Assembly: GCA_913041865.1 (NCBI GenBank)
Contig: CAJWIW010000001.1
Coordinates: 4,862-36,861, forward strand
From: an uncultured Gammaproteobacteria bacterium
Lineage (GTDB): Bacteria; Pseudomonadota; Gammaproteobacteria; GCA-002705445; GCA-002716945
DNA: 32,000 nt
Reading direction: 5' to 3'
Positions 13,177-32,000 of this stretch are shown here, piece by piece (position 1 is the stretch's first letter; each line of letters begins with the position of its first letter). A program made the position numbers and the translations under genes. Under the pieces are notes generated by a model, which saw nothing but the letters and a program-made list of their open reading frames with translations, ran no database searches and was not told the DNA's origin.

Positions 13177-13178
13177 TG

Positions 13179-13997: not shown

Positions 13998-14025
13998 ATA
14001 TTATGTCGGATTTAGCACTGTCTAA
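13998..14025 (-). promoter_or_regulatory. Candidate sigma70-type promoter for the methyltransferase/photolyase operon
   Basis: The - strand reads TTAGAC-N16-TAATAT (14025-14020 / 14003-13998), about 60 nt upstream of the ATG at 13934. It sits in the only sizeable gap (93 nt) of the - strand block. Such matches arise easily by chance in AT-rich DNA. Confidence 0.25.
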
Positions 14026-14027
14026 CA

Positions 14028-16055: not shown

Positions 16056-16924
16056 TATGTATAGAATTTAATTAGATTATCAATGATCACCTCAACATCA
16101 TCAGTGAAATGATAATTATAATCATTTGAAAATTTATTTGATGACATCTGAAAGTTATATTTACTAGAATGATCCAGCTCATGAATAGTTGCTTTAGTTT
16201 TCTTTTTGACAATATTAGCAAGTGTTTCCATATTAGCGTTTATTGAACTAAGATTATATATCTGCGGTAACTTAGGTGGACTATTGAGAAGTAATTCTAT
16301 TGCATCAACGAGGTCTTCAATAAATAAAACTCCCCTATTAGCTTTCGGATTTGCTAGATAGATCTTATTTTCATTTAATGCATCTTTAACCATTTTATTC
16401 AACAAAAGCTCTTCTCTAATATGTTTCGAGCCACCATCAACAGTTCCAAATCTCAAGCTTACGAAGTCTTTATTCATTATTGACATGTAATTATCGATTG
16501 ATATTTTCGTATAATCATAAATATTTATCGGCATACCAACAGTTGTGTCCTCATCGCAAATTGCGCCAGCAATGCTTGTATAAACGCTAGCTGAACTAGC
16601 ATATATTATTTTCCCTTTAAACATATTCATAAAATTAACCAATCCTGAATAATTATTATCATAACAACCCTCAGGATCTGCTAATGATTGAGGAACACTT
16701 GAATGCCCAGCTAGCCATAGACAAATATCGAATTCATTGATTTCATTGATTTTCATCTCTCTATAGTCAATTTGATTTATATTTGGGAGTAGATCATTCT
16801 TCTTAAGGAGATTATCTATCGAATAAATATTATACTTATCCTTACAGCGTTCTAAGAATCTGCAACCAATATAACCATTTGCACCAACTAGTAAAATTTT
16901 TTGTGTTGTATATTTATTTATCAC
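16055..16924 (-). CDS. NAD-dependent nucleotide-sugar epimerase/dehydratase/reductase (extended SDR)
   Basis: ILLVGANGYIGCRF Rossmann motif and YDYTK (YxxxK). 1-nt overlaps with both neighbours. Confidence 0.8.
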   Translation of the reverse strand: MINKYTTQKILLVGANGYIGCRFLERCKDKYNIYSIDNLLKKNDLLPNINQIDYREMKINEINEFDICLWLAGHSSVPQSLADPEGCYDNNYSGLVNFMNMFKGKIIYASSASVYTSIAGAICDEDTTVGMPINIYDYTKISIDNYMSIMNKDFVSLRFGTVDGGSKHIREELLLNKMVKDALNENKIYLANPKANRGVLFIEDLVDAIELLLNSPPKLPQIYNLSSINANMETLANIVKKKTKATIHELDHSSKYNFQMSSNKFSNDYNYHFTDDVEVIIDNLIKFYT

Positions 16925-18135
16925 TATATGTATTTACCATCAGGAAATGGAATAAAAATGTCGCCGTCAAACCCAGCTTTCTTGATTCTCTTTATGAGAT
17001 CATCTTTATATGTCCAAGCTAGAATACAAGCAATATCAAAATTCTTATAATTTACTTCTTCTGGGTTCTCTATTGGTATGTTAGTACCGGGAATATTGTA
17101 ACCTTGTTTTTCAGGTGTGTCATCTATAGCGACTGCATTTTGTAGAGTTTTACAATTACAGACATTTGCAGTTATCACACCCCTAGCAGGCACTCCAACA
17201 ATTAAAACATTTTTATGAATTGCATTGGCCAAAAATCTACTTTTTATATTAAAAATTTTATGTTCAATTACCTTTGATAACTTCATATACATGGAAATAT
17301 CACTGATACCAAAGTCACGTTCTTCTTTAAGAATAACATCTATATTATCTGATACTTCCTTGTTATCATTAAGATGCTCTATCCAAATTCCTAGAGACCC
17401 ACCTTGCGTTGGTACTTTATCCACATCAACAACCATCAATTCATTCTCTTTTAGAATATTAATTAGAGATGTGAGTGTATAATTACAAAAATGCTCATGA
17501 TATATGGTATCAAAATTACCAGATAATACCGTGTCTTTCGCATATGCAACCTCTATATATGCATATCCATTGCTAGCCAGGAGATACTTTATTGCTGAAA
17601 ACATATCATTATATGTACTATTATGTGCAAATACATTCAAACCTATAATAATATCTATTTTTTCACCAACTAAATTTCGAATTTTTAATTGATTGCTAGT
17701 ATCGAAAAAAAGATTATGAATAGAAAAATTATCACTACTTTTTTTCTGATAGACATTTTTTGCTGGATCTATACCATGTGAAATAAAGTTTTTATTAATA
17801 TTTCTCAAAAATGTTCCATCATTACAACCTACTTCTAGTAAAGTCTTACGATCATTATGTTTATTGTTAATCATTTCTGCTACATTCTTAAGATGCCTCA
17901 CATTAGATGTAGATGCAGATGAAATATGGTCATACTCTAAATAAATAGAATTAAGGTCTGGCATTGATGAAAGCTGAACTAGCTTACATGATTCACACAC
18001 AGTTAATACCAAAGAGGTTCGATCATTATCTTCCTGATTACTCGAGTAATTATTCACACGAGGCATCATCCCAAAATCATAAACTTCGATTGTTTCTGTA
18101 TGATTTTTACACGAACAATATGAGGTTTTTATCAT
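16924..18135 (-). CDS. NDP-sugar C-methyltransferase-type SAM methyltransferase (TylCIII-like three-domain architecture)
   Basis: N-terminal Cys-rich putative zinc domain (CSCKN...CESCKLVQLS), SAM motif I LLEVGCNDGTF and a ~150-aa C-terminal Rossmann-like domain typical of sugar C-methyltransferases. Confidence 0.7.
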   Translation of the reverse strand: MIKTSYCSCKNHTETIEVYDFGMMPRVNNYSSNQEDNDRTSLVLTVCESCKLVQLSSMPDLNSIYLEYDHISSASTSNVRHLKNVAEMINNKHNDRKTLLEVGCNDGTFLRNINKNFISHGIDPAKNVYQKKSSDNFSIHNLFFDTSNQLKIRNLVGEKIDIIIGLNVFAHNSTYNDMFSAIKYLLASNGYAYIEVAYAKDTVLSGNFDTIYHEHFCNYTLTSLINILKENELMVVDVDKVPTQGGSLGIWIEHLNDNKEVSDNIDVILKEERDFGISDISMYMKLSKVIEHKIFNIKSRFLANAIHKNVLIVGVPARGVITANVCNCKTLQNAVAIDDTPEKQGYNIPGTNIPIENPEEVNYKNFDIACILAWTYKDDLIKRIKKAGFDGDIFIPFPDGKYI

Positions 18136-18863
18136 TTAAAAATACTTCTTCTCACTCTAAGATACTTAAACAGGATATACCAGAACAGTACAAAAAAATG
18201 TGTAATAGCATATTTTGATGCTCCCAAATATCCATGAGATGTATGTTCTGAATTATAATCACATTCTACAGGTATTTCGTCAACTTTGTAGTCATTAGCA
18301 ATAGCATAAGCAATGATTTGAAAGCTAAACAAATAATCATTAGAAAATTTGCTTTGATTTATATCTTTAAATTTTCTGCTGTAGACTCTAAATCCAGTAT
18401 GGAACTCAGAAAGATTTTTGTTTAATATTATTCTGTCAATAAAGGATAAAGCACGGTTTGCAATGTATCTCGGCAAGGGCATACCAAGCTTGAGCGCCCT
18501 TCCCTTTTCTATGAAACGAGATCCCAATATTAAATCAGTATCATTTTCAATTAATGATGACGCTTTAGATATTGCCTTTGGATCAAATTGAGCACCATCA
18601 CCATGAATTTCAAGAACATAATCAGCTCCATCATCAAATGCTACCAGTAATGCATTCTTTATGTTTGCGCCATATCCTTTATTATTTGAATTAACAACTG
18701 TGTATCCAAGACTTCTGTATTTACTAACTGAATTATCCATTGACCCATCATCAGATACTATAACTTTATCAAATGATGAATGCGGAATTCTTGAGATAGT
18801 TCTATCAATCATATGTTCACAATTATGTGATAAAATAACAGCATATATTTTTTTATTATTCAT
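18132..18863 (-). CDS. GT2 polyprenyl-phosphate sugar synthase-like glycosyltransferase (DPM1/ArnC/GtrB-like)
   Basis: YAVILSHNCEHMI...VIVSDDGSMDNS GT-A motifs, HGDGAQ, one C-terminal hydrophobic helix (HFFVLFWYILFKYL). I prefer the ATG at 18863 (MNNKKIY, 8-nt ATGAATAA overlap with the upstream stop) over the track start at 18917. Confidence 0.8.
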   Translation of the reverse strand: MNNKKIYAVILSHNCEHMIDRTISRIPHSSFDKVIVSDDGSMDNSVSKYRSLGYTVVNSNNKGYGANIKNALLVAFDDGADYVLEIHGDGAQFDPKAISKASSLIENDTDLILGSRFIEKGRALKLGMPLPRYIANRALSFIDRIILNKNLSEFHTGFRVYSRKFKDINQSKFSNDYLFSFQIIAYAIANDYKVDEIPVECDYNSEHTSHGYLGASKYAITHFFVLFWYILFKYLRVRRSIFK

Positions 18864-19521
18864 GATTGCTAAGATACTTGTAGAATAACTTTTTAAATAT
18901 AAATGGGAGTAACCCAAGTAGTGAAAGTAAAATTAATATATTTATGTCAAAAGAAATATTTGCATTCAGCATCTCATACATTTTATCCCCAGTAAGAATA
19001 ATTATAAATGTCATTGGCAACATTCCAATTTGTGTAACTAGATAGAAAATATAGGTCTTCATAGAAGTTAATCCAAAAAGAAAATTTATCATGAAATATG
19101 GAAATATAGGACTCATTCTAATAGCGTATAAATAAAATGCTCCATTTTCTCTAAAACCAGTATCAATAGATGAGTATTGTCGACTAAACTTACAAGCTAT
19201 ATAATCTCGAAAAAAGTATCGTGATATAAGAAATGCAGATGTAGCGCCAACTGAGGAGGCGAATGATACAATAATAAGAGCATCAAAAACGTCAAAAAGC
19301 ACGCCAGATAAAATACCAAGTATGAAAGCCACTGGTAATGATAACGATGTTAATAATATATAAATTAAAAAGAAAATAACCTTTGCTTCAGTTGTACTAG
19401 TATTTGCGAAGTCAATCAAAATCAAGAGATTGGTATTTATTATATTTAATAATTGCGCATCAATAATATAAAACAATAAAAGAAAAGCTATAAAAATTAT
19501 TAAATAAAATATATATTTCAA
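18856..19521 (-). CDS. TVP38/TMEM64 (DedA-superfamily, SNARE-associated) inner-membrane protein
   Basis: Polytopic. GATSAFLISRYFFRDYI and RMSPIFPYFMINFLFGLT match the SNARE_assoc/TVP38 pattern. Confidence 0.8.
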   Translation of the reverse strand: MKYIFYLIIFIAFLLLFYIIDAQLLNIINTNLLILIDFANTSTTEAKVIFFLIYILLTSLSLPVAFILGILSGVLFDVFDALIIVSFASSVGATSAFLISRYFFRDYIACKFSRQYSSIDTGFRENGAFYLYAIRMSPIFPYFMINFLFGLTSMKTYIFYLVTQIGMLPMTFIIILTGDKMYEMLNANISFDINILILLSLLGLLPFIFKKLFYKYLSNHE

Positions 19522-19541
19522 ATTAATAGTTGATATGAAAA

Positions 19542-20294
19542 TTATTTTTCTCCACTTAAGCTCTTACTAGACTTATTCTTACTATTTTTTTTATCTAGGA
19601 AGTATTGATCATAGTAAGATCCCTCTAATTGCTTCGTATAAGTATAATATAGCGTTCTTCTACTTTTGTCTGAGGTATTTTTACTAGATCTGTGTGGACA
19701 CGTATTACTAAAAATGACTACATCTCCAACATTAAGTTCGACTGACTCAAATATTAATTGTTTCTCGACAGACTCTATAATATCTGGTGTTCCATTTTTT
19801 TTTGTATTTTGTAATAATTTATCAAAGCCACCTTTATGTGCACATGACAATTCAATAGTCCCGTTTTCCTCATCACATTTATCTAATGCTATGAGGACGT
19901 TCATGAAGTAATCTGTATATTTATACCATCCTCTTTCTTGTTTATTTGATTCATTAATAAAATAAAATACCCCATCATAGTGTGCAAAAAATCCCTCGCC
20001 ATTTGGTGGTTTAGCGTTGTATTTGTCCTTGAATATGACAAAATCAAAACCGAAAATAATAGATAATATTTTTGTTATATCATTATTGAGGTTTATAAGT
20101 GATTGACCTTTATCATATAATTTCTCAATTCTTCTTAAAAAACCATTTTGATCGTAATATGTGTCAATATCTGTGGCTTTTTGAATATCTTCGATGCAGT
20201 ACTCTATAAGCTCCTTACTAATTGCTTCTGGGATTCTCACAAAGCCTTTTGTATTTATTTCCTCCCTATATTTTTTTATATCGTTATCTAGCAC
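19542..20294 (-). CDS. Fe(II)/2-oxoglutarate dioxygenase, phytanoyl-CoA dioxygenase (PhyH) family
   Basis: HxD in FFAHYDG, distal His in CPHRSSKN, Arg pair (SRRT). GTG start; 250 aa. Confidence 0.8.
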   Translation of the reverse strand: MLDNDIKKYREEINTKGFVRIPEAISKELIEYCIEDIQKATDIDTYYDQNGFLRRIEKLYDKGQSLINLNNDITKILSIIFGFDFVIFKDKYNAKPPNGEGFFAHYDGVFYFINESNKQERGWYKYTDYFMNVLIALDKCDEENGTIELSCAHKGGFDKLLQNTKKNGTPDIIESVEKQLIFESVELNVGDVVIFSNTCPHRSSKNTSDKSRRTLYYTYTKQLEGSYYDQYFLDKKNSKNKSSKSLSGEK

Positions 20295-20299
20295 AATAG

Positions 20300-21124
20300 T
20301 TACTCTGCGAAAAATAATTGTTTACCATTAATTTGATAATTATTTATGAGGTTTTTTCCTTCTGTTGAAAGGATCCAGTCATAGAAAATCATTGATGACT
20401 TTTTGTTAATATTCTTGCATTTATCGGCATTAACTAAAATTATTCCGTATTGATTTTTCATTCGTGGATCTTTTTCATATACAATTATATGATTCTGTTT
20501 ATTTTTAAAATTTAGCCATGTCGCTCTATCCACAAATGTATAAGCATTGAGTCCTACCGTGATATTGAGAGTGGAACCCATGCCTTGTCCTGTCTCTAGA
20601 TACAATTTACTTTGTTTGAACTTATTAAAATCGTCTTTGATATCCTTCCAGATTCGCATTTCAGCTTTATGAGTCCCACTATCATCTCCTCTAGAAATAA
20701 ACTTTTCTGTGCCTAATGCAATCTGTTTAGTAGCCATTTTAAGTGATTCATAGTTTAAAATATTTAAAGGATCACTTTTTGGGCCTACGATTACAAAATC
20801 ATTGTACATCAAATTTTCTCTCTTGGTTCCATAACCATCTTTAATAAAGATCTCTTCATCTTGTCTAGAATGGACGATAAGTATATCTCCATCACAGTTT
20901 CTTGCATTATTTATAGCTTGACCAGTACCTACAGCAATTACTTTGACTTTTATATTAAATTTTTCATTAAAATGAGGTATTAGATAATCGTAAAGACCAG
21001 AGTCTCTCGTAGAGGTTGTAGACTGTATGATTAACGTAGAACTACTATTATCAGAATACGTCGCACTCGCATGAGAAAAAATGATTAATAAAATGTATGC
21101 GATATTTCTAGTAATTGACTTCAC
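20300..21124 (-). CDS. tupA: Periplasmic oxyanion-binding protein, TupA-like (PBP_like_2 family)
   Basis: Signal peptide (IAYILLIIFSHASA), IIQSTTSTRDSGL and SRGDDSGTH resemble tungstate-binding TupA. GTG start overlaps the ATPase gene by 17 nt. The true ligand is uncertain. Confidence 0.65.
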   Translation of the reverse strand: MKSITRNIAYILLIIFSHASATYSDNSSSTLIIQSTTSTRDSGLYDYLIPHFNEKFNIKVKVIAVGTGQAINNARNCDGDILIVHSRQDEEIFIKDGYGTKRENLMYNDFVIVGPKSDPLNILNYESLKMATKQIALGTEKFISRGDDSGTHKAEMRIWKDIKDDFNKFKQSKLYLETGQGMGSTLNITVGLNAYTFVDRATWLNFKNKQNHIIVYEKDPRMKNQYGIILVNADKCKNINKKSSMIFYDWILSTEGKNLINNYQINGKQLFFAE

Positions 21125-21737
21125 TTAATGCACCATCCTTAATATTATATATAGAGCTACAGATATTACTTATCTCATCTTTATCTTGTGAGACGATAAG
21201 CACTTTATTAAATTTAGAGTATTCCTCTAAAAAGTCATAAAGAAGTTTTTTGTTAGCGTCATCTAGGTTATTGTTTGGTTCATCACATATAAGTAATTCT
21301 GGTTCCAAAATAATGGATCTGCAAAAAGATATCATTTGTTGCTGACCACCTGAAAGTTTCATTACATGTTTATCTATTAAATCAATAAGATTAAATTTTG
21401 TAAGCACTTTTCTTATGACTTCTACTGATTCACTGTATGTTAATTTATTTTTTGCATGCAAGGTATGTAATAAGTTCTCTTTTACTGTACGCCTCAATAA
21501 GATAGATTTTTGAAATATAAATCCTATATTTATCTTTGATAAATTGCTGATGGTACCTTTGGACGGACAAAGTAATCCGGATATTATTTTTAAAATACTT
21601 GTTTTCCCAGATCCGTTCTCTCCATAGATCAGAGTGACCCCTTTTTTATCTACATCAAAAGATATATTTCTTAGCACGCTCTGATCATCATAAGAGAAGT
21701 CTACATTTTTCAATTGGATTAAAATATTCTTATCCAT
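21108..21737 (-). CDS. tupC: ABC transporter ATP-binding protein (TupC-like, short form)
   Basis: Walker A GENGSGKTS, signature LSGGQQQ, Walker B LLICDEP. I prefer the ATG at 21737 (MDKNIL, 8-nt overlap with the permease stop); the track start at 21752 is a TTG. Confidence 0.8.
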   Translation of the reverse strand: MDKNILIQLKNVDFSYDDQSVLRNISFDVDKKGVTLIYGENGSGKTSILKIISGLLCPSKGTISNLSKINIGFIFQKSILLRRTVKENLLHTLHAKNKLTYSESVEVIRKVLTKFNLIDLIDKHVMKLSGGQQQMISFCRSIILEPELLICDEPNNNLDDANKKLLYDFLEEYSKFNKVLIVSQDKDEISNICSSIYNIKDGALSEVNY

Positions 21738-22425
21738 GAGCTCTAATCTCAAGTCTTTTAACTAGGTTTAACATTATATTTATCAAAAGTGCAATTAAAA
21801 TAAGAATGATGCCAAGTGACACAGCTCTTTGGATATCGCCTCTGGATGTCTCAAGAACAATACTAGTTGTCATTACTCTAGTCATATAGTCGATATTTCC
21901 ACCAACAATTATTACTGCGCCTACTTCTGATAGTGCTCTACTAAGTCCAGTAAGTACATTGATCATCAATGAATAGCGAGACTCCCAAAGTATTGTTTTC
22001 ATTTTCAATATAAACCCAGATTTAAGAATAAAAAGATAATCATGCAGTCTATCATATGTCTGATCTAGTGTATCTTTCGATAATGTAATTATAATTGGTG
22101 TTACTATTACAAATTGCGCTAACACCATGGCTGTTGGACTATAAAGTAAGTCAAGATGACCGAGCGGTCCACTTTGAGATAACAAGATATAGAAAAATAA
22201 TCCTACAGCAACTGGTGGAATGCTCATAAGAGAGTTTATGATTATGGTTAGCGTATTTTTACCGAAAAAATTGTATATTGTGAGAATAGATGCGGTTATA
22301 AGTGAAAATATCACAGATGTTAATAAAGCAACTAATGAGACTCCCAAAGACAATAGGATTATGTCAATTATATAAGGATCGAAGAACATATCGCTCATCA
22401 TTTTAAGAAGTTCACTAGTTTGCAT
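21730..22425 (-). CDS. tupB: ABC transporter permease (TupB-like)
   Basis: 231 aa, about 5-6 TM helices, with an EAA-like loop region (ALSEVGAVIIVGGNI). ATG overlaps the alcohol dehydrogenase stop by 11 nt. Confidence 0.75.
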   Translation of the reverse strand: MQTSELLKMMSDMFFDPYIIDIILLSLGVSLVALLTSVIFSLITASILTIYNFFGKNTLTIIINSLMSIPPVAVGLFFYILLSQSGPLGHLDLLYSPTAMVLAQFVIVTPIIITLSKDTLDQTYDRLHDYLFILKSGFILKMKTILWESRYSLMINVLTGLSRALSEVGAVIIVGGNIDYMTRVMTTSIVLETSRGDIQRAVSLGIILILIALLINIMLNLVKRLEIRAHG

Positions 22426-23557
22426 TACTTAGATCGTGGAAGATTTTTGATATAATTTTGGGGGTCAGTTTTATTGGATTATTTTTTAATCTATGAATAT
22501 TGATATTGTCCACTAGGAATTTAATGTCGGCATCATTTTTTATGCCGATATTTTTTGTATTAACTGTCAGATTTAATTTAGACATTAGTGCATACCAATA
22601 TTTTTCACAAGATTTTGCAGAATCTAATCCCATTAATTTATAGAGATTTTTCATGTTTCTCCTAATATATTTACTACCTCTTTTATCTTGAATAGCTGTG
22701 TTATTTGTTGCTTCATTAATCACAAAAAACTTACCGAGTGTTATAGCAACAGAATAACCATGTGGTATGTTATATTTTCTGCTTAACATATATGATATAG
22801 CATGTGCAGCTGTAGTTTTTGCGATATTAATTGCTCTTCCAGAATAGTTAGCAGCTCTAAACATTTCTGATTGTGCTTTTTTATCACCATTTAATGATTT
22901 AAGAATATACTTTTTTAATATTTTAATAGCTTTCCCTGAATATAACTTGCTTGACCGTGTAGAGTTTACTGACCAGTAAGATTCTATGGCTTGGCAATAT
23001 GCATCTAAAGCAGTTGAGATCCTTACAGTTTTAGACATCTTGTGTCCTAGTTCTGGTATTATTAGGGCATAGTCTGGAAGCAAGTATTGACTCTCCACTG
23101 AGTACTTTTTGTCTTTAATATATATTACTCCAAATGATGTACTCTCACTGCCAGTGCCACTAGTAGTGGGTATTGCAATAAATGGAACATTACTATTTTT
23201 AAGCGATCTTTTATTTATTATTTTATCTTCTAAATTATTATTATTCACAGAAAAAATTTTAAGATGTTTAGCCATATCAATAGTACTGCCTCCTCCTATT
23301 GCAATAATAAGATCTGGTTTAAAACTTTTAATGATTTTTAGGCCAATTTTAACATCTTCTATTGATGGATCATTTGCAAAACTATCGTAGATGTGTTTTT
23401 CATAAGAATTAATAGTTTTGTAGAACATATTACTTGCGCCTGACTGTCTAAAAGACTTCTTTCCTGTAACAATCAGTATTCTTTTTGGGTTAATAGATTT
23501 GACTAATTTGTTAAAGCTTAAAATAGCCTCATTACCAAATATAATTTTTTGCTTCAT
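22415..23557 (-). CDS. Iron-containing (group III) alcohol dehydrogenase; candidate phosphonoacetaldehyde reductase (PhpC/FomC-like)
   Basis: Fe-ADH motifs IAIGGGSTIDMAK and His-rich region (AHAISY...PHGY). ATGA overlap with the phosphonopyruvate decarboxylase gene directly upstream. The substrate assignment comes from context. Confidence 0.75.
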   Translation of the reverse strand: MKQKIIFGNEAILSFNKLVKSINPKRILIVTGKKSFRQSGASNMFYKTINSYEKHIYDSFANDPSIEDVKIGLKIIKSFKPDLIIAIGGGSTIDMAKHLKIFSVNNNNLEDKIINKRSLKNSNVPFIAIPTTSGTGSESTSFGVIYIKDKKYSVESQYLLPDYALIIPELGHKMSKTVRISTALDAYCQAIESYWSVNSTRSSKLYSGKAIKILKKYILKSLNGDKKAQSEMFRAANYSGRAINIAKTTAAHAISYMLSRKYNIPHGYSVAITLGKFFVINEATNNTAIQDKRGSKYIRRNMKNLYKLMGLDSAKSCEKYWYALMSKLNLTVNTKNIGIKNDADIKFLVDNINIHRLKNNPIKLTPKIISKIFHDLSNAN

Positions 23558-24678
23558 TTGTTTATTAATGACATTAATTGTTTTTTATTTTCAATGGGTG
23601 TCTTATCAGGTCTTGACAGATCAGATCTAGCATTTGATTTAACTAATACTTCAAGAAACGCTGTACCTTTATGGTTCAGAATTTTTTTGACTGCCTTAAT
23701 CACTTGAGTCTTAGTGTGTGCTCTTAAGGTTAGGCTATAGCCAGAATATTTGGCTATCATTGACATATCAATATCAAAACCAACAGTTGGTTGATTGCCA
23801 ACAGATTCATGAGCGCCATTATTAAAAACGATATGTTTGTAATTTTTCTTATTTATAGAGGCATTTATTGCTAACGAACCCATGTGCATTAAAACTGATC
23901 CATCGCCATCGAGGCATATAACTTCTTTCTTTTTATTTATTGAAATTCCGAGCGCAATCTGTGATGCATGCCCCATTCCGCCAACGGTATAAAAATCAGG
24001 ATTACGAGAACAATTGTTTTTACGATATTCATATAATTCTCTAGATGTAAATCCTGTAGTTGATACAATAATACTATCTTTACGGATATTCTCTAAGATA
24101 ATATGAAGCGCATCTTCACGGCTTAATTCATAACGAAATCTTTTCTTATTAATTTTATTATATTTTTTAAAGACATCTTTTTCGATAACAACGGCACATG
24201 GCATCTTCTGTATTTTTATTCGTTCTACCATTCTATTTATTTTAGTCTTGATTTGATCTTGCGAATCAGAATTTCTTATTATCTCAAATTCGATTTCCAT
24301 AGACTTCAACATGTTTAACATAACCCTTCCCTGTTTTTTATGTTGTGGCTCATCCTTTACACCAGGTTTTCCACGCCACCCAATCACTAAAAGCATCGGT
24401 ATTGAATAAACATCCTTATCCGCAAGTGATAAAAGAGGATTAATAATATTTCCTAAACCTGAATTTTGAAGATAGATCATTGGGACCTTATTTGAAGATA
24501 AATAATAACCAATCGCAAGTGCTATAGCATTGCCTTCATTCGCTGCTATGATATGTCTCTTTTTCGCATGATCAGAGATATAAAAACATAAGTTTTTAAG
24601 AAGTGAATCCGGGACACCAGTAAAAAAACTGATATCGTGTTTTAATAAATGTTCATAGAAACTTTTTGGTGAAATCAT
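23554..24678 (-). CDS. ppd: Phosphonopyruvate decarboxylase (ThDP-dependent)
   Basis: N-terminal FFTGVPDSLLKNLCFYI is typical of Ppd/AepY. ThDP motif GDGSVLMHMGSL...NNGAHESVG. ~374 aa single-chain form. 1-nt overlap (TAATG) with PEP mutase. Confidence 0.88.
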   Translation of the reverse strand: MISPKSFYEHLLKHDISFFTGVPDSLLKNLCFYISDHAKKRHIIAANEGNAIALAIGYYLSSNKVPMIYLQNSGLGNIINPLLSLADKDVYSIPMLLVIGWRGKPGVKDEPQHKKQGRVMLNMLKSMEIEFEIIRNSDSQDQIKTKINRMVERIKIQKMPCAVVIEKDVFKKYNKINKKRFRYELSREDALHIILENIRKDSIIVSTTGFTSRELYEYRKNNCSRNPDFYTVGGMGHASQIALGISINKKKEVICLDGDGSVLMHMGSLAINASINKKNYKHIVFNNGAHESVGNQPTVGFDIDMSMIAKYSGYSLTLRAHTKTQVIKAVKKILNHKGTAFLEVLVKSNARSDLSRPDKTPIENKKQLMSLINK

Positions 24679-25970
24679 TATTTAGTTCCGGGGATCAAAT
24701 CTAAAATATCATTAATTGAAATACATTTATCACTAGCCTCTAATGAGCGTTTATTTTTTAAGATTGATAGTGCTGTGCTTAACATAGCAGGATATGCGCT
24801 TCTAAGCATATGATTAGCATAGCATATTATATTTACACCTCTACTTTCCCACTCATCTTCGGTAATTGCATTATAACTTGTAGGTACGATCATTAACGGT
24901 TTGCTCTCTTTATATTTAGAGCAAAATTCGAATATTTCATCAGGATCTTTTTCTTTACTATGAATCATTATACCATCTGCACCAGCATCTATATAGCTTT
25001 TAGCTCTTTCTAACGCATCATCTAGACCTTTAGAGAGGATTAAACTCTCAATCCTAGCGATTATCATAAAATCATTAGTGACTTGAGACTTCTTACCGAG
25101 GGATATTTTCTCTTGAAAGTTTTTAATGCTGTCCTGTTCTTGATGAACACTATTACCTAAAAGAGAGTTCTTCTTAAGACCAACTTTGTCTTCAATCACA
25201 ACAGCAGAGACACCTAACCTCTCTAATGATTTTACAGTAAAAGTGAAATGCTCATTTTTTCCCCCTGTATCAGCATCAAAAATCATTGGTTTTGTCGTTA
25301 CCTCAAAAATATCATTTACTGTATTCATTCTTGACGTCATATCAATTGCCTCGATATCAGGTTTACCTTTTGCTGTTGAATCTGTCAGACTACTTGACCA
25401 CATTGCATCAAACTCAATTACGCGACCATCTTTTTCTATTTTAGCCTTCTCCGTTATTAAGCCTGATAAGCCATTATGCACCTCATTTAATCGTATTATA
25501 GATTTTGCCGATAGCATTCTTTTCAGTAGTGATAATCTAGTGTTAGGTGTAGTTCCGATCTCTCGCATATTTTTATTCAATATAGTTGATGATATATTCT
25601 CAGTATATGGTATCTCTACTAGTTCCCCATTCCATTCTTTAAGTGTTTCTATAACCTCATCCCTTACTTTCTTTTGAGGCCCTTCTCTCCAGTCATCCCC
25701 ATGAACCACATAATTAGGTCTCAGTATCAATAAGTTCTCTCTATAATTATGTGTTCTTTGTTCTATTACCTTGTCTACACCTTTAATTTGCTCAATTATC
25801 AATTTACGACTCTCGTATGGCATAAATGGAAGTCGTTTATAGCTAGATATTGCTTTATCAGTTAGCAGGCCAACCACAACATCCCCTAACTTTGATGCTT
25901 CCTTAATTATATTGATGTGACCTTTATGAATAAGGTCAACACTCATTGCAACATATACTATTTTTTTCAT
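24678..25970 (-). CDS. ppm: Bifunctional TagD-like cytidylyltransferase / phosphoenolpyruvate phosphomutase
   Basis: The C-terminal ~290 aa carry the Ppm-diagnostic EDKxxxxxNS motif ([12 protein letters not shown]) in an isocitrate-lyase-fold context. The N-terminal ~135 aa read [16 protein letters not shown] (HxGH)...VVHGDDW...YTENISST, closely paralleling glycerol-3-phosphate cytidylyltransferase TagD. Confidence 0.88.
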
Positions 25971-27172
25971 TTACTGACATCTCCATTAATAATATTAGAT
26001 AGGAACTTACTACAATTATCAATTGAGTTGTAATTCTCTAAATTATAGTATTTTTCTAATAAATTTTTTCTTTGATTGTTAAACGATAATGTATAATTTT
26101 CTGAATTTCCTAATATTTCTTTGAAAATTTTCATCAAACTATCGTATGATTCAGCTGCTTTCCCAGGTATCGTATTTTTATAGTCTTCAATAAACCCTTT
26201 TCTTTTACAATATTTATCATAGTCTGGCATACAAAAAACTTGCGGTCTATCTAGTATACTGAATTCAACAGATGTAGTGGCGTAATCGTTCAGTAAAATG
26301 TCACTTTCGAGCATCATTTCGTTTGTATCATATAAGGGATAGGACTTATTTATAAGTTTTATCCTATCTGTATTTCCTAATAATTCAGATGGCTTTCGTA
26401 CAGAGTGAACAGAATAAACAAAAAATAGATTATTCTTTTTTAAGAAATTATTAAAATCATCTACATTAAATCCAGATAGATCAAGAAGAGGAAGATTATA
26501 CTTATAGGGCCTCCATGTAGGCGTATACAAAATTACTTTAGAGTCTCTTGTGAAATTTGCAAATAGATCTTTACAAAATGATTTATCATATATTTTTTTA
26601 TTAATAATATCTTTATTGAAAAAGTTATCATTTTTTGGAAATCCCAGAATTTTCGCTTTATGAGATGGAATGCCAAATATCGTCTTCGAAATATTGTTAG
26701 CAAGGTATGGTGACGTATAATTAATATAATCAAACTTATTTATGCGATTTATTCTTAAGGCCCTTGTATTGTCATCGTCTTTCGCTGCTATTGTAGTCTT
26801 TGGGCCATATCCATGAAATAGAGATATTTTGTACGTATCCTTAGAATCACATATTTTGAATATATTAAAATAACTATCTCCGTCATTAATCACAATTTTG
26901 GCTCTCAAGGCAGTGATAATAAGTTTAAATGGATTGCTTAAAGATAGAAATTTAAATTTATTCAGAGCAAGATGATTTTTAACTTGATTTGATTTTGTAT
27001 ACCAGTATACATCATACTTATGCTCTCTCGACAGATGCTCATACAAATATCTACTATTACCATTATAGGAGTAATTATCTGTTCCACTGAAAATTATTAC
27101 ATTATTTTTTTTAACTTTATCCCTTAGAACTGAAAAAAATAACGTTAGGATTGTTTTGATAAATGATTTCAT
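25967..27172 (-). CDS. CDP-glycerol glycerophosphotransferase family protein (TagB/TagF-like)
   Basis: ILYTPTWRP and [29 protein letters not shown] match the Glyphos_transf pattern. ATGA overlap with the Ppm fusion gene. Confidence 0.78.
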
Positions 27173-27180
27173 TTTCTAGT

Positions 27181-28971
27181 CTAATTTACTATGTAACTTT
27201 TTACAGAAGATATTGATGATTTAGCATCATATTTACCAAGGATAGTATCAATATTGCTCATGTATTCTTTTTCCAGAAGCTCTTTATCTGAATTTATAAA
27301 ATAACTATAAAGAGAGTAAAGTTCGCTATAGTTAGTCACCTCACATTTGTTGATTTTACTGTAGATATTTGGAGATTTAGATGTAAACGATGACGGTCTA
27401 AATGAAATTGTAGGGATTTTGGAAAACAATGACTCATATATAGCCGATGATTTAGGTGCTGAGATAACGAGATTTGAAATTCCTATTGCCTCATAAATAG
27501 ATAAATCTAGTTCATTTACATAGATAACATTTTCTTGAGAAATTAGAAAATCCAGTATCATGATAATTTCCTTATCATTTAGCCTTTTTATCTCCTCATA
27601 AGGCTTCTTTGTTTTAAATAGGTACATGGTATCTCTAGTATTCTCAACCAGCCTAGTCATTGTCTTGATAAAATCTTTATAACTATCCAAATTCATCACG
27701 CTATACAGCCCAACTGGGGAATCAAGGATGCATGCCAATTTCATATGAGTGGGTATTTTTAAACTACTTATGTAGTCCAAACGTTTTTTAGAATAATCAC
27801 CTATTCTTTCACACATAAAAGGTGAATTGTCTATATATGTTTCTACGTCATTATTAAGTGTTTTAAACCAATCATTTGAGATATTTGACGAAATAATCGT
27901 GTCATAGCACATAAACGAGTAATCCAAGCAATGAGTGAGGTTAGGATCATTTGCATTTTCAATTATCTGCTCTGTAATTGAAAAATATAAGAATATTGTT
28001 TCAACATTATATTCTTTATGTATCTTTTGTTCTGCCAACGATCTTGGAATCATGAAGCTAATAACTTTATTGACGCTCATTTTATTATGAAACGATTGCC
28101 ATTTAAGCTTTTCTGATAAATACTTATTGGAAAAGCTAGACAAGAATCCAAATTTTATTATCAGTAATACTAATTTGTATCTTAATTTAGAATTATCTCT
28201 ATATAAATCAAGTTTTTCTCTGAAAGATAATGTCTTAAAGATAGATTTGAGACTTAGAACATTATATCTACGTGATTTATATTTTTTGGGCCATTTATTA
28301 TTTATGTTACTATCATCAATAAATAAAACATCCTCTTTTTTTATCTCTGAGTCGTCAACTATAGAATCTTGATTAACAATTTCCCAACCAATCAGTCCAT
28401 CATCCATATGAATACAATATTTATAGCTTTTCTTCAAATCAATTTTTCCAAACATAAAGACAATATATTCAAGAAAGAAAGTTACTTTAAGTGTTAGAGC
28501 TAATATTTTTAATTTTGTATATAAATAATTAATAGCATAGTAAAGCTTTGATATATTTAACTTGATATCGTTTTTTGAATATCTACAATAATAATTTAGA
28601 ATTTTTGTATTACAATATTCTGGCCATACAATTGCTATTTCATTATCTGGAACTTTGCTTACATGAATACTAGATAAAATTATTTTTTTAAATTCAAGTG
28701 AGAGACTTTTTAAGATACTTTTTTTAAAAAATTCCGTATCTTGTGATATTTTACTAATTTCTGATTCGTAATTACTATCATAATACTTTCTTGCAAGATC
28801 ACTTGCTAAATAATCAGATTCTCTGTATTCGTGCGCAACCAATATGTCATCAGGAAGAATTAGAGTATTAGTTTTTTTGTTGCTGATATGTCTTTTATGA
28901 GCTACTATCCTTCTCCAAAAATATAGCTTTTGGAATATTGATTTTCTGCAAAAAATTATTGATTTGAACAA
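27181..28971 (-). CDS. Hypothetical 596-aa protein; possible GT-B-like surface-carbohydrate transferase
   Basis: Long uninterrupted ORF in the operon, very AT-rich and Lys/Ile/Asn/Ser-rich. The C-terminal part (VIYVNELDLSIYEAIGISNLVISAPKSSAIYESL) looks like the C-terminal Rossmann half of GT-B/capsule transferases. No motif is securely recognised. Confidence 0.6.
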   Translation of the reverse strand: MFKSIIFCRKSIFQKLYFWRRIVAHKRHISNKKTNTLILPDDILVAHEYRESDYLASDLARKYYDSNYESEISKISQDTEFFKKSILKSLSLEFKKIILSSIHVSKVPDNEIAIVWPEYCNTKILNYYCRYSKNDIKLNISKLYYAINYLYTKLKILALTLKVTFFLEYIVFMFGKIDLKKSYKYCIHMDDGLIGWEIVNQDSIVDDSEIKKEDVLFIDDSNINNKWPKKYKSRRYNVLSLKSIFKTLSFREKLDLYRDNSKLRYKLVLLIIKFGFLSSFSNKYLSEKLKWQSFHNKMSVNKVISFMIPRSLAEQKIHKEYNVETIFLYFSITEQIIENANDPNLTHCLDYSFMCYDTIISSNISNDWFKTLNNDVETYIDNSPFMCERIGDYSKKRLDYISSLKIPTHMKLACILDSPVGLYSVMNLDSYKDFIKTMTRLVENTRDTMYLFKTKKPYEEIKRLNDKEIIMILDFLISQENVIYVNELDLSIYEAIGISNLVISAPKSSAIYESLFSKIPTISFRPSSFTSKSPNIYSKINKCEVTNYSELYSLYSYFINSDKELLEKEYMSNIDTILGKYDAKSSISSVKSYIVN

Positions 28972-28988
28972 AAGTACTTTTGCTTATA

Positions 28989-29786
28989 TTACCAAGAAGT
29001 TCTACCACCATCTATTGCAACTACTGCGCCATTCATATAGCTACTAGCATCACTACACATGTATACTATAGTTGCCTTGTATTCATCTTGATTTGCCATT
29101 CGATTCATTGGTATTAGCTTTTCAATTTTTGATATAAATTTATCACTTTGATCGTTTTTCATACCTCCAGGAGCAAGAGCATTACATCTTACACCCTCCC
29201 TCGCCCAATATGTAGATGTGTACTTAGTCAAACCTATAATTCCATGTTTGATTATAGAATATGATACTGGCTTATAGCTGTTTTCATAAATCTCCTGATT
29301 CGGTGCGATAAGACCTAAATCTGAGGATATATTCAATATAACACCTCCCTTGTTCTTTGCCATATCATTTCCAAATATCTTTGTACATATCACTGCACCC
29401 ACAAGACCAACGCTTATCTCTTGATATAGCGTATCAATTTTAAATGATTCAAAAGATCCAGATTCAACGTTATCTCCACTAACTTTTGGATCTATTGCTG
29501 CATTATTTATTAATACTGATGGATAATTATGAAATCTTTTTTTAATAGTATTTTTGAGTTTTAATACAGCTTTTTCATCAGTTATATCAATTTTAAAAGT
29601 ATGAAGGTTATTATGAGAACCAAGAGATGTCTCTAATGATTTTATATTTTTGCTAGAGTTATCTAAAACAATTACACTAGACCCAGCATCAAGAAGTGCC
29701 TCCGTATGTTGCCTCCCTAGTAAACCTGCTCCACCTGTTATAATTGCCAATGTGTCTCTTAAATTAAATTTATCTAATGTATTCAT
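28989..29786 (-). CDS. Short-chain dehydrogenase/reductase
   Basis: ITGGAGLLGRQH, NNAA, YSIIKHG (YxxxK). Confidence 0.85.
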   Translation of the reverse strand: MNTLDKFNLRDTLAIITGGAGLLGRQHTEALLDAGSSVIVLDNSSKNIKSLETSLGSHNNLHTFKIDITDEKAVLKLKNTIKKRFHNYPSVLINNAAIDPKVSGDNVESGSFESFKIDTLYQEISVGLVGAVICTKIFGNDMAKNKGGVILNISSDLGLIAPNQEIYENSYKPVSYSIIKHGIIGLTKYTSTYWAREGVRCNALAPGGMKNDQSDKFISKIEKLIPMNRMANQDEYKATIVYMCSDASSYMNGAVVAIDGGRTSW

Positions 29787-29788
29787 TT

Positions 29789-30961
29789 TTACTCACCAAA
29801 GTATTTGAGAGTCTTTTTTAATGCATTAATTTGTACATCTCTTTCTTTTTTGGACGATTGATTAGTTGTGAAATTCATTAGCATTTTTTGTAATTTTATA
29901 GCAGTTGGTGTTTTACCTTTCCCTATTTTATTATTCTTAAAAGCAGGCTCTTGATGTTGTAATTTAGATGCAGCATATATTCCGTCACCTCCATATGAAA
30001 TATATTTTTTTCTGAAATCTGACCATGATACTCCTCTACTCTCTCCTATATATTTAGCAGAGAATGTATAATATGTATGATAATAACCTGAAAGAACTTT
30101 TTGTGGGATAAGAAATTCTGATCCACGAAGTGTTTTAGTATATGCTAAACCCATTTTTCTTCTTAGACTAATAAACTTCTCTGCTCTTTCTGTTTGAGCG
30201 AGTGCGACAGCCGCTGCCATCTGATTCATTCTATAATTGAAACCAATTATTTCAAATCTATCCCAATTTGGATTTTGTAATTTATCTCTATCAGTTCTTA
30301 CACGTCCACTTTTTGCAGTAAGGTTTTTAAAACCTAAGCCTCCTAGTTTTCTAATATGTGTAGCAAGTCTTTTATTTTTACATGTGATGATTCCACCATC
30401 TCCACAAGTTAATTGCTTGCTATTCTCGAAACTCCAGCTTCCAACATCACCAATCGTTCCAGTAATTCTTTTTTTATCATCTCTACCCAAATGGCATTGA
30501 GCACAGTCTTCCAAAACCTGCAGCTTATATTTTCTAGCAATTTTCATTATCTCTGTCATATTACAAACACCACCATACATATGAGTTACCAGAATTACTT
30601 TTGATCTTCTAGTTATCTTTGACTCTAAATCACATGGGTCCATCAAAAAAGTTTCCTCATCGACATCAACAAAAACTGGTGTTGCGCCAGTATAATATGG
30701 GGCTAGACCGCACATCAGTGGTGTTAGAGCTGGTGTCAACACTTCATCGCCTTTACCACATCCCATAGCAAGTAATGCAGCATGCATCGTAGTTGTGCCC
30801 GAGTTAAATGCGATGGCATAAGAAACTTTGTGTTTTTTTGCAAATAGAGCTTCTAATCTTGTTGTAAATGCTCCATCTGCTCCTGCTTTGAATCCAGAAG
30901 CCAATACTTCATCGATATACTTCCTCTCGTTTCCTTTAAATCTCCAATTAGTTTTCTTCAT
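29789..30961 (-). CDS. DegT/DnrJ/EryC1/StrS-family PLP aminotransferase (SpsC-like)
   Basis: Fold-type I sugar aminotransferase pattern: FNSGTTTMHAALLA, DEVLTPALT and the PLP-lysine context SFENSKQLTCGDGG. Confidence 0.85.
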   Translation of the reverse strand: MKKTNWRFKGNERKYIDEVLASGFKAGADGAFTTRLEALFAKKHKVSYAIAFNSGTTTMHAALLAMGCGKGDEVLTPALTPLMCGLAPYYTGATPVFVDVDEETFLMDPCDLESKITRRSKVILVTHMYGGVCNMTEIMKIARKYKLQVLEDCAQCHLGRDDKKRITGTIGDVGSWSFENSKQLTCGDGGIITCKNKRLATHIRKLGGLGFKNLTAKSGRVRTDRDKLQNPNWDRFEIIGFNYRMNQMAAAVALAQTERAEKFISLRRKMGLAYTKTLRGSEFLIPQKVLSGYYHTYYTFSAKYIGESRGVSWSDFRKKYISYGGDGIYAASKLQHQEPAFKNNKIGKGKTPTAIKLQKMLMNFTTNQSSKKERDVQINALKKTLKYFGE

Positions 30962-30982
30962 ATAGTTATATTTATCAATATT

Positions 30983-31720
30983 TTATATTGGTTTTTTCGA
31001 CTGATTAGATTGTCTGGCAGCCCACTCTTCATTTCTAAATGTATTCATACTCTCAATACTAGGATTATCCACAAGAAATCTGTGCAGCTGACTCCTTGTA
31101 GCAAAATGACCTAACTGTCTTAGTATCTTACATAATTTCTGATAATCCTCCTCATAGTCTAACGTCATCCTACTTGTGATTACATCATTATCTGGGTCTG
31201 TCATTCTGTAAATTTTTATTTCATTATGATCTAAAATAAAACTCGAAATCATCTCCGTATCTGTAGTTGGCTCTATAGTATTACATATTTTGGATAAAGC
31301 GTCATTCTTAATTGAGTAGCCTACGGTAGCGCCACCAAGTAATGAAGAGGGAGAAGGATAAATAATATCATACCCTTTATCTAAAAAACTCATGCTCCTG
31401 ATAACCTCTTCAGCACAAAAATATGGATCATCGGCATCAATAGAATGAAATCTATCGATATTAAAATTGTTACAACAATCATTCCATCTCTTTAGTTTAT
31501 TTTTTTCTGATCCACAAAAATACTTTACATCATTTTTTTTAGCAATATTTACTAATTCCTTATCTGAATCTTGTTCGGTAGTACATATGATAGGATCAAT
31601 TTTAAAAAACTTAACACGATTAATAATATGCTCAATCATCATTTTACCTCCAAAATCGAGAAAACATTTTCTTGGTAATCTTGTTGATGAGCTTCTAACT
31701 GTAATGAGAGCTTTAATCAT
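30983..31720 (-). CDS. SpsF-type cytidylyltransferase (CTP_transf_3 / acylneuraminate cytidylyltransferase family)
   Basis: N-terminal ITVRSSSTRLPRKCF...GKMMIEH matches the SpsF/FlmC-type R-x-x-S-x-RLP-x-K motif. Confidence 0.75.
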   Translation of the reverse strand: MIKALITVRSSSTRLPRKCFLDFGGKMMIEHIINRVKFFKIDPIICTTEQDSDKELVNIAKKNDVKYFCGSEKNKLKRWNDCCNNFNIDRFHSIDADDPYFCAEEVIRSMSFLDKGYDIIYPSPSSLLGGATVGYSIKNDALSKICNTIEPTTDTEMISSFILDHNEIKIYRMTDPDNDVITSRMTLDYEEDYQKLCKILRQLGHFATRSQLHRFLVDNPSIESMNTFRNEEWAARQSNQSKKPI

Positions 31721-32000
31721 TTATCAGTGTAAGTAAAAGAGCATTAAATCTTCGTCCATTCGAATCTTTGTAAAAGTTTTTTAAAGTACCTTCTGTTATA
31801 AATCCTTTTTTTTGTAATGACTTTATTGATCTGATATTTTCTTGTGATGTTAGAGCTGTGATACGATACATTTTATGATATTTTACTAATTCATCTAAGC
31901 AAAGATCTAATGCTGATCCAAATATTCCTTTTCCCCAAAAATCTGGAGATATTGCATATCCTATATGACATGATTCTCTTTTACGATCTATTTTATGTAT
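31713..32000 (-). CDS. GNAT-family N-acetyltransferase (RimJ/RimL/PseH-like), 5'-truncated by window edge
   Basis: Hand translation of the - strand from nt 32000 gives IHKIDRKRESCHIGYAISPDFWGKGIFGSALDLCLDELVKYHKMYRITALTSQENIRSIKSLQKKGFITEGTLKNFYKDSNGRRFNALLLTLIND*. WGKG plus the KKGF..EG pattern is typical of GNAT. Its stop overlaps the next ATG by 8 nt (ATGATTAA). Confidence 0.75.
   Translation of the reverse strand: MHKIDRKRESCHIGYAISPDFWGKGIFGSALDLCLDELVKYHKMYRITALTSQENIRSIKSLQKKGFITEGTLKNFYKDSNGRRFNALLLTLIND

Follow-up and report, generated by a model that had tools for sequence, protein, structure and literature searches.

The DNA analysed here (the window: 32,000 nucleotides of contig CAJWIW010000001.1, from an uncultured Gammaproteobacteria bacterium) carries on its minus strand three overlapping genes for the core of phosphonate biosynthesis: ppm (24678..25970, 430 amino acids), encoding a bifunctional cytidylyltransferase-phosphoenolpyruvate (PEP) mutase; ppd (23554..24678, 374 amino acids), encoding a phosphonopyruvate decarboxylase; and a gene (22415..23557, 380 amino acids) for a PhpC-type group-III (Fe/Zn) alcohol dehydrogenase (ADH), a candidate phosphonoacetaldehyde reductase yielding 2-hydroxyethylphosphonate (2-HEP or HEP). 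The ppm and ppd genes overlap by 1 nucleotide (base 24678), and ppd and the ADH gene by 4 (23554-23557). The Pfam domains were PEP_mutase (PF13714) and CTP_transf_like (PF01467) in Ppm, TPP_enzyme_N/C in Ppd, and Fe-ADH (PF00465) and ADH_Fe_C (PF25137) in the ADH. The region is probably a HEP-type phosphonoglycan or phosphonoglycoprotein module, located in a hypervariable surface-glycan island of a marine gammaproteobacterium.

Ppm scored 399.7 bits against the NCBIfam PEP mutase model TIGR02320 (cut-off 319.55) and Ppd 454.8 bits against TIGR03297 (cut-off 312.5); judged by these curated cut-offs, both are true members of their families. Ppm remained below the cut-offs of the rival NCBIfam models for phosphonopyruvate hydrolase (142.9 vs. 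374 bits), methylisocitrate lyase (91 vs. 354) and carboxy-PEP mutase (47.8 vs. 420). Its mutase domain (amino acids 149-430, about 24681-25526; PF13714 match at amino acids 150-403) aligned with mussel Ppm (1m1b, E 1.7e-42) and held the EDK(X)5NS catalytic motif at amino acids 260-269 (25164-25193), in which E260, D261, K262, N268 and S269 were invariant (12 homologues). The N-terminal FFTGVPDSLLK of Ppd begins at amino acid 18, and its thiamine diphosphate (ThDP) motif, GDG-X25-NN, spans amino acids 258-287 (GDGSVLMHMGSLAINASINKKNYKHIVFNN). A preliminary description of this DNA had reported three coupled minus-strand genes with overlaps of 1 and 4 nucleotides, and its coordinates and overlaps proved exact. 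It had also called the first product a PEP mutase, as is borne out by the TIGR02320 score, the EDK(X)5NS motif and the failure of the methylisocitrate lyase and carboxy-PEP mutase models, and the second a phosphonopyruvate decarboxylase, in agreement with the TIGR03297 score, FFTGVPDSLLK and the ThDP motif. Its account of Ppm was correct for the mutase but incomplete, having overlooked a fused Fom1-type cytidylyltransferase (CyTase) domain.

This domain occupies amino acids 1-138 of Ppm (about 25557-25970; PF01467 match at amino acids 12-131), with an HxGH motif at amino acids 15-18. Its best solved relative was the N-terminal domain of Fom1 (PDB 5x3d, E 6.2e-51; 81 of 137 residues, or 59%, identical), and its homologues bear the JGI label [quoted passage not shown]. 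A fused cytidylyltransferase is present in about 24% of all Ppm proteins (PMC6697681), and Fom1 cytidylylates HEP to the cytidine monophosphate (CMP) derivative CMP-HEP (Cho 2017, as cited in PMC6697681). The fused domain of the window implies, by homology, that CMP-HEP would be formed. As proof of HEP specificity, the Fom1-like domain was rejected, because clusters of the 2-aminoethylphosphonate (2-AEP or AEP) type hold an equally similar one. Four Clostridium loci (L050, L068, L080 and L083; loci are given by L numbers) encoded a PF01467-Ppm fusion (61-64% identical) followed by Ppd and then, where the ADH would stand, by a class-V aminotransferase. Since the Fom1-like domain is present in these AEP-type clusters, it is undiagnostic of HEP, and the HEP specificity of the CyTase can be read only from the ADH branch enzyme and the gene context.

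The ADH carries an NAD-binding GGGS motif at amino acids 88-91. Its metal ligands D185, H252 and H266 were invariant in 10 cluster-linked homologues, and its second ligand position is Q189; a Q at this position is also found in sulfoacetaldehyde reductase (PMC13576164). K151, T248 and Y256 were invariant, and R356 nearly so, in the ADH and nine cluster-linked homologues. [quoted passage not shown] The four window residues match these in their offsets from the metal ligands, a correspondence obtained by offset mapping and not by direct alignment with P. fungorum PhpC. The ADH was also 40-47% identical to the ADH of sister clusters containing MPnS, a pathway that must pass through HEP.

Eighty related genome loci were compared (among the matches listed), each encoding a fusion protein 59-68% identical to the window Ppm. 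The order CyT-Ppm, Ppd, Fe-ADH was kept in 68, belonging to Proteobacteria, Bacteroidota, Firmicutes, Spirochaetes, Patescibacteria and archaea; the remaining 12 comprised 7 on truncated contigs, the 4 Clostridium loci with a class-V aminotransferase replacing the ADH, and 1 (L054) with neither. MPnS and HEPD were absent from the window (tblastn with two sister-island MPnS homologues, best E 1.2-2.4; no cupin open reading frame, ORF), as was a class-V (PhnW-type) aminotransferase (tblastn with the AEP transaminases of L050 and L080, best E 0.68). The sole aminotransferase of the cluster is of the DegT/LegC type, and every window ORF of at least 100 amino acids was assigned to families other than these three. 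Both approaches, tblastn and ORF assignment, agree with the earlier statement that the window holds no PhnW transaminase and no HEPD or MPnS. Because the MPnS of the sister islands uses HEP, the orthologous core should make HEP; and because the window has no MPnS and instead encodes a PhyH-family dioxygenase and a PF27878 protein, its predicted product keeps the two-carbon skeleton.

Overlapping the start of ppm by 4 nucleotides is a gene (25967..27172, minus strand, 401 amino acids) for a TagF/TarF-like CDP-alcohol (cytidine diphosphate-alcohol) phosphotransferase, which matched PF04464 (Glyphos_transf) over its whole length (E 4.6e-44; 151 bits, cut-off 22). Its best solved relatives were TarL (8va1, E 4e-16) and TagF (3l7j). 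H120-G121, H256 and YTPTWR (amino acids 216-221) were invariant among 5 phosphonate-linked homologues, and H256 aligned with the His of “RMHYL” in TagF and of “KMHPF” in TarL. H120 and H256 correspond to the catalytic histidines of TagF. Homologues of the TagF-like protein (37-51% identity) adjoin the HEP core in L044, L087, L090 and L092, in independent arrangements. No separate glycerol-3-phosphate cytidylyltransferase was found in the window, so the CMP-HEP made by the product of the neighbouring gene would be the simplest donor for the TagF-like enzyme.

The adjoining gene (27181..28971, minus strand, 596 amino acids) was assigned by precomputed annotation to PF27878 (“PFTS_polysacc”), and its product is a candidate second transferase or polymerase. 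This protein had no match in the local Pfam or NCBIfam and no solved relative in the PDB, by sequence or by a 43-sequence profile, and its single-sequence AlphaFold2 (AF2) prediction gave no usable fold (pLDDT 33). The family numbered 119 cluster representatives in 1.84 billion proteins. Its members adjoin the core in L087 and L092 and also in L044, where a tandem pair (4728-6554 and 6551-8353) lies between the ADH and TagF-like genes. Weak hints of a relationship to the TagF-like protein were obtained (hhalign E 0.03-0.07; Glyphos_transf match of E 0.003 in 1 of 43 members). In this small sample, PF27878 accompanied the TagF-like gene in the HEP-type islands (the window, L087, L092 and L044). 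A speculative idea, given only a small chance of being correct, is that the two proteins serve as primase and polymerase, with CMP-HEP or CMP-dihydroxyethylphosphonate as substrate, producing, in place of one pendant group, a teichoic-acid-like poly(hydroxyalkylphosphonate) in which each unit would be esterified through its own hydroxyl. The methylphosphonate-type sister islands, whose phosphonate lacks any hydroxyl for chain extension, had no PF27878, and this pattern favours the polymer. If true, this would be a biopolymer with a C-P backbone, of a kind not described before, carried by a Gram-negative marine cell, and it would feed HEP-rich high-molecular-weight (HMW) dissolved organic phosphorus directly.

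A further gene of the run (19542..20294, minus strand, 250 amino acids) encodes a PhyH-family (PF05721) Fe(II)/2-oxoglutarate (2OG) dioxygenase, a candidate phosphonate alpha-hydroxylase. Its best NCBIfam match was the methylphosphonate hydroxylase PhnY* (NF052437), at full length and 71.2 bits, below the cut-off of 500. The Fe triad (H105-x-D107 and H201) and the 2OG-binding R212 were invariant in 34 homologues. The AF2 model was confident (pLDDT 93.5) and had the PhyH fold, and Foldseek against the PDB returned only generic PhyH-fold hydroxylases. A metagenome scan seeded with the PhyH profile alone gave 80 loci (L095-L174). Among those flanked by 2.5 kb or more on both sides, 13 of 15 had CyT-Ppm, Ppd or ADH beside PhyH, as did 51 of 64 among those with a flank of 1.5 kb or more on one side. 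The linked loci were mostly of the ADH type; 2 also contained MPnS and 1-2 were of the transaminase type. PhyH homologues adjoin the core in L078, L081, L087, L092 and L094 as well. Strict mutual exclusion of PhyH and MPnS, which had held in the first 14 loci, was refuted by the 2 metagenome loci with both. No PhnZ or HD-domain gene was found in the window by ORF and Pfam assignment, which makes a catabolic PhnY*/PhnZ role unlikely, and a 2OG oxygenase in AEP clusters has been tied to 1-hydroxy-AEP products (PMC8942020). Linkage is the strongest evidence on PhyH: the protein is probably a biosynthetic phosphonate alpha-hydroxylase converting HEP, which could be free, CMP-bound or glycan-bound, to 1,2-dihydroxyethylphosphonate. 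A PhyH homologue of Candidatus Pelagibacter ubique (GCA_028031255.1, L093:8001-9990; 55% identical) lies beside a gene of the sulfatase/alkaline-phosphatase superfamily with no ppm nearby, and this pair could process phosphonate esters rather than act in biosynthesis.

Between the ADH and PhyH genes, and also on the minus strand, are three genes for a TupABC-like transporter: an ABC (ATP-binding cassette) permease (21730..22425, 231 amino acids; NF038017, 192.8 bits, cut-off 100), whose gene overlaps that of the ADH by 11 nucleotides; an ABC ATPase (21108..21752, 214 amino acids; PF00005); and a periplasmic oxyanion-binding protein with a signal peptide (20300..21124, 274 amino acids; PF12849). 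The specific NCBI cut-offs were missed by all three (TupA NF041772, 207 vs. 400 bits; TupB NF041773, 143.8 vs. 320; TupC NF041774, 98.3 vs. 400). The binding protein matched 3muq (E 2e-58), the tungstate-binding 3lr1 (8e-53) and 5my5 (5e-50), and kept the anion-binding motifs STTSTRDSGL and SRGDDSGTH; it may recognise phosphonate rather than tungstate. A transporter follows the ADH in all sister islands (L087, L088, L090 and L092), and this conservation indicates that it belongs to the module; in L092 radical S-adenosylmethionine (SAM) and TagF-like genes are located between the genes for the ATPase and the binding protein. A different binding protein, PBP_like_2, directly follows CyT-Ppm in a Spirochaetia metagenome-assembled genome (MAG; L054:11657-12664), and is a second, unrelated anion-binding protein beside ppm.

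From at least 31720 down to 13179 every gene lies on the minus strand, and neighbouring genes either overlap slightly or are only minimally spaced. In a promoter/terminator scan the number of hits did not exceed that expected from shuffled sequence, and no limits of the operon emerged from it. On one side of the phosphonate genes are a PtmA-like short-chain dehydrogenase/reductase (SDR; 28989-29786; Pfam adh_short; PtmA, 94 bits), a LegC/PseC-family aminotransferase (29789-30961; DegT_DnrJ_EryC1; TIGR04181 LegC 186 bits and PseC 174 bits, each short of its cut-off) and a CMP-sugar synthetase-like protein (30983-31720; CTP_transf_3); upstream, beyond the window, the source contig (L001) continues with an acetyltransferase, NeuB, a GHMP kinase and an NTP transferase. 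On the other side are a VTT/DedA-family membrane protein (18856-19521; VTT_dom), a GT2 polyprenyl-phospho-sugar synthase-like protein (18132-18917; Glycos_transf_2; PpgS-like, 62.7 bits, below cut-off), a sugar C-methyltransferase (16924-18135; Methyltransf_14/13/23), an NDP-sugar epimerase/reductase (16055-16924; Epimerase) and a polytopic membrane protein of 675 amino acids with no family assignment (14028-16055). This last set also follows PhyH in L095, L104 and L111. Its GT2, DedA/VTT and 675-amino-acid proteins resemble the GtrB/ArnC-ArnT-style trio of periplasmic glycan modification. With sugar genes on both sides in one minus-strand run, the core is indeed buried in a surface-glycan operon, as had been described. 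The glycan context given earlier stands, but the likely phosphonyl-transferase role of the TagF-like gene had been overlooked, and so had the TupABC-like importer embedded in the operon.

GC content was 25-32% in the glycan island (13000-32000) and 35-40% in the housekeeping half (1-13000), which contains dnaK, dnaJ, dapB, fabD, fabG, fabF, pabC, tmk and holB, in what is, in our judgement, a gammaproteobacterial order. The island edge coincides with genes common to the sister contigs (SNase-like, orf151, DPRP and TylF). The flanking tmk, holB, alpha/beta hydrolase, SNase-like, orf151 and photolyase-related products shared 42-70% amino acid identity with metagenome contigs L088-L091, and the O-methyltransferase (TylF) 54% with L090/L091. 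The photolyase-related protein (PF04244 DPRP + FAD_binding_7, 494 amino acids) overlaps by 4 nucleotides with a 118-amino-acid CxxC protein (11339-13176), and DPRP keeps its island-edge position in L087-L089. The nearest named relatives of FabF (76%), Ppm (78%) and PhyH (57%) were “Gammaproteobacteria bacterium” MAGs, which, with the island GC of 25-32%, supports the low-GC gammaproteobacterium proposed earlier, at the level of class. Membership of SAR86 would be plausible; a single SAR86 locus (L064) was recovered, with no more than 62% Ppm identity. Exact window proteins were present on Tara, JGI and other ocean metagenome contigs (exact Ppm on at least 16 contigs).

The cargo at this site differed among the islands. 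Window-type islands (L001-L006 and L095) hold PF27878, the TagF-like gene, the core, TupBCA, PhyH and the VTT/GT2/C-methyltransferase set; L087, L092 and L097 additionally include a B12-radical SAM enzyme; and L088-L091 carry MPnS and an extra PF12804 nucleotidyltransferase, without PhyH and PF27878. The sister-island MPnS homologue matched PDB 6b9s (E 1.9e-80) and stands beside an orthologous core with 73-75% Ppm identity. Shortened MPnS homologues (about 376 amino acids) were seen at L088:8845-9975, L090:12049-13182, L064:7808-8494 and L007:5346-5984. The MPnS-bearing islands include a SAR86 single-cell genome (SAG) contig (L064) and a Piscirickettsiaceae MAG, and the extra PF12804 nucleotidyltransferase is beside the core in all except L064. 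Genes for the B12-binding radical SAM enzyme were found at L087:17286-18803, L092:13678-15195 and L078:14597-16093 and in 11 of the 80 loci L095-L174, often with PhyH and TagF-like genes, and not in the window. Its best NCBIfam match was the Sden_1168 “P-methyltransferase” family (223 bits, cut-off 575), the PhpK family being weaker; its possible activities are methylation of CMP-HEP, in the manner of Fom3, and a reaction at phosphorus. In Prochlorococcus and SAR11 the phosphonate trait is island-borne, present at low frequency and horizontally exchanged (PMC8931226), a pattern which, by analogy, the variable low-GC island matches.

Taken in order, the proposed route would start with isomerisation of PEP to phosphonopyruvate by the Ppm domain and its conversion by Ppd to phosphonoacetaldehyde, two steps predicted from curated family membership; the decarboxylation would draw the unfavourable mutase equilibrium forward. 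The PhpC-type ADH would then reduce phosphonoacetaldehyde to 2-HEP, as its residues and conserved context suggest, and the CyTase domain would join HEP and CTP into CMP-HEP, an analogue of CDP-glycerol (homology to a characterised enzyme, and context). The last two steps are proposed from gene linkage: the TagF-like enzyme, possibly with the PF27878 protein, may move HEP-phosphonyl onto a hydroxyl of the glycan that the neighbouring legionaminic-acid-type and other sugar genes would build, with release of CMP and a phosphonate ester at the surface, and PhyH probably hydroxylates C1 of the phosphonate, possibly before the transfer, to give a 1,2-dihydroxyethylphosphonate decoration.

Several observations weigh against this route. 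The ADH missed the phosphonate-specific Fe-ADH model TIGR03405 (135.7 vs. 423.7 bits) and other Fe-ADH models scored alike; the Fe-dependent ADH of the preliminary description is borne out for the family (PF00465/PF25137). The CyTase was 57-60% identical to the domains of the AEP-type Clostridium clusters and 59% to Fom1. The TagF-like protein missed the TarF, TarL and TarB equivalog cut-offs (80.6 vs. 550, 67.1 vs. 1000 and 30.2 vs. 500 bits), the donor we infer for it comes from gene linkage only, and the acceptor may be a polysaccharide, a glycoprotein or a lipid. PhyH homologues also occur with MPnS, with an AEP transaminase, or with a sulfatase-like gene without ppm, which makes the substrate and direction of the enzyme uncertain. 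Finally, with 32 kb of the genome in view, a converting enzyme could be encoded elsewhere. The end product claimed earlier, 2-HEP or a derivative, is nevertheless supported by the PhpC-type residues, the conserved gene order, the absence of MPnS and an AEP transaminase and the MPnS cores of the sister islands; the claim was incomplete rather than wrong. The word derivative covers the outcome, but PhyH had been overlooked, and a hydroxylated HEP is likelier than plain HEP.

One alternative concerns how far the product goes beyond HEP. It is quite possible, if somewhat short of probable, that PhyH shapes the final decoration, which would then be 1,2-dihydroxyethylphosphonate or some other alpha-hydroxylated product, HEP being just the last common intermediate. 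Most well-flanked loci link PhyH to the core, the curated model nearest to it describes a phosphonate C1-hydroxylase (PhnY*-type NF052437), its Fe/2OG triad is intact, its AF2 model is confident, and a 2OG oxygenase in AEP clusters has been associated with 1-hydroxy-AEP products (PMC8942020); however, the NF052437 score is 71 vs. 500, the Foldseek matches are generic, and a sugar or the completed glycan is just as possible a substrate. Such a product refines the HEP-type module without contradicting it, and fits within “2-HEP or derivative”. The nature of the acceptor is a separate matter. The LegC-family aminotransferase, PtmA-like SDR, NeuB and CMP-sugar synthetase resemble the Campylobacter-type legionaminic-acid/flagellin-modification set, and the phosphonates of Prochlorococcus SB were assigned to glycoproteins (PMC8931226), both of which would suit a phosphonate on a protein-linked glycan (e.g. 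a legionaminic-acid-type sugar on flagellin, pilin or S-layer) instead of a capsule or O-antigen. This is rather unlikely: the window contains no flagellin, pilin or Maf-type gene, and the GT2/VTT/membrane-protein set suggests polyprenyl-phosphate-linked periplasmic glycosylation, which fits polysaccharide or lipopolysaccharide equally well.

Two other alternatives would remove the glycan product altogether. Fom1-type cytidylylation is transient in fosfomycin biosynthesis, and the sister islands hold a B12-radical SAM enzyme of a phosphonate-associated family, so CMP-HEP might be a passing intermediate towards a small diffusible phosphonate of antibiotic type and no glycan donor; but genes for a radical SAM methyltransferase, an epoxidase, an ATP-grasp enzyme, a nonribosomal peptide synthetase or resistance are absent from the window, and its core is translationally coupled to a TagF-like transferase with sugar genes on both sides, which makes this very improbable. 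The ADH and the TupABC-like transporter have also to be considered as a salvage or catabolic unit that would import a phosphonate or oxyanion and oxidise HEP back to phosphonoacetaldehyde, given that PhpC-type enzymes also act in HEP catabolism (PMC13576164) and that an importer dependent on a solute-binding protein is embedded in the operon and kept in all sister islands. Against this, PhnX, PhnA, PhnY, PhnZ and C-P lyase genes are absent from the window, the ADH directly follows Ppm-Ppd in the biosynthetic arrangement, and tungstate-binding TupA structures are the nearest to the binding protein; a salvage role is hardly to be expected.

If the region is a HEP-type glycan module, it bears on marine phosphorus. 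Methylphosphonate and HEP polysaccharide esters make up a large share of marine HMW dissolved organic phosphorus and feed the aerobic formation of methane and ethylene (Repeta 2016, as cited in PMC9381506 and PMC13576164), and a TagF-like transfer of HEP to a sugar hydroxyl would create the linkage reported for marine HMW dissolved organic matter and actinomycete phosphonoglycans. The cluster is thus a plausible source of the phosphonate esters of seawater, of whose HEP forms neither the producers nor the attachment chemistry have been shown, and provides a complete putative genetic route (PEP to HEP to CMP-HEP to TagF-like transfer to glycan). The swapping of cargo at one site (MPnS; PhyH with or without B12-radical SAM) suggests that close bacterioplankton relatives diversify their surface phosphonate, and the PhyH family stands out as a strong candidate biosynthetic phosphonate hydroxylase, widespread in the ocean and so far unrecognised. 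The core pathway, the CyTase-Ppm fusion and CMP-activated decoration of surfaces with phosphonate were already published (PMC6697681, PMC8942020), as was pepM in marine bacterioplankton including SAR86 (bioRxiv 10.1101/2020.11.04.368217). Each part of the pathway is of an already described kind, the accessory set is a variant, and the whole holds little surprise for a specialist. In the literature searched there was no description of the TagF-like/PF27878 pairing with a HEP core, of an ocean-wide PhyH family tied to Ppm-Ppd-ADH, of the conserved TupABC-like transporter, or of the swap between MPnS-type and PhyH-type cargo at one locus. With this cluster, the question of who makes the HEP esters of seawater, and how, becomes open to direct experiment.

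Among characterised systems, the fosfomycin pathway of Streptomyces wedmorensis (Fom1-Fom2-FomC) has the same three reactions, with a PF01467-Ppm fusion followed by Ppd and a group-III ADH, and proceeds through HEP to CMP-HEP. The window differs in containing no Fom3 (B12-radical SAM methyltransferase), Fom4 epoxidase or FomD, and in its setting, the glycan island of a marine gammaproteobacterium, where CMP-HEP would go to a glycan rather than to methylation and release. The Pnt pathways with PntC (Rice et al. 2019, PMC6697681) follow the same logic, with a nucleotidyltransferase fused to Ppm or next to it, a donor in the form of a CMP-phosphonate, a transferase and surface-glycan genes; the characterised PntC enzymes, however, are PF12804 (LicC-like) proteins that prefer 2-AEP and have LicD-like partners, whereas the window has PF01467, the ADH branch and a TagF-like candidate. 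The methylphosphonate clusters of Nitrosopumilus maritimus and marine bacteria (Ppm-Ppd-Pdh-MPnS) are identical in the core up to HEP and share the marine context, but PhyH and PF27878 take the place of MPnS and the extra PF12804 nucleotidyltransferase in the window. With the wall teichoic acid enzymes TagF/TarF/TarL, the TagF-like protein shares PF04464 over its full length and the conserved His and PTWR motif, and it would likewise use a donor with a CMP leaving group; it differs in its score (80 vs. 550 bits), in the absence of TagD, TagB and TagO, in the Gram-negative host and in the proposed donor, a CMP-phosphonate and not CDP-glycerol. PhnY*-type hydroxylases (the 2-AEP dioxygenase and the methylphosphonate hydroxylase of Gimesia maris) resemble the window PhyH in family, full-length NF052437 match, HxD...H triad and 2OG-binding Arg, although the window protein scores well below the cut-off, has no PhnZ partner and is linked to biosynthetic Ppm-Ppd-ADH instead of catabolic genes. 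The phosphonoglycans of Stackebrandtia nassauensis and Glycomyces, according to the papers that cite their description, are the only isolated examples of HEP-exopolysaccharide esters (Yu et al. 2014, cited in PMC8942020 and PMC13576164). In those accounts they come from Actinobacteria, with uncharacterised transferases and activation chemistry, and the likeness drawn is one of product class: HEP esterified to an exopolysaccharide is the class of product predicted here.

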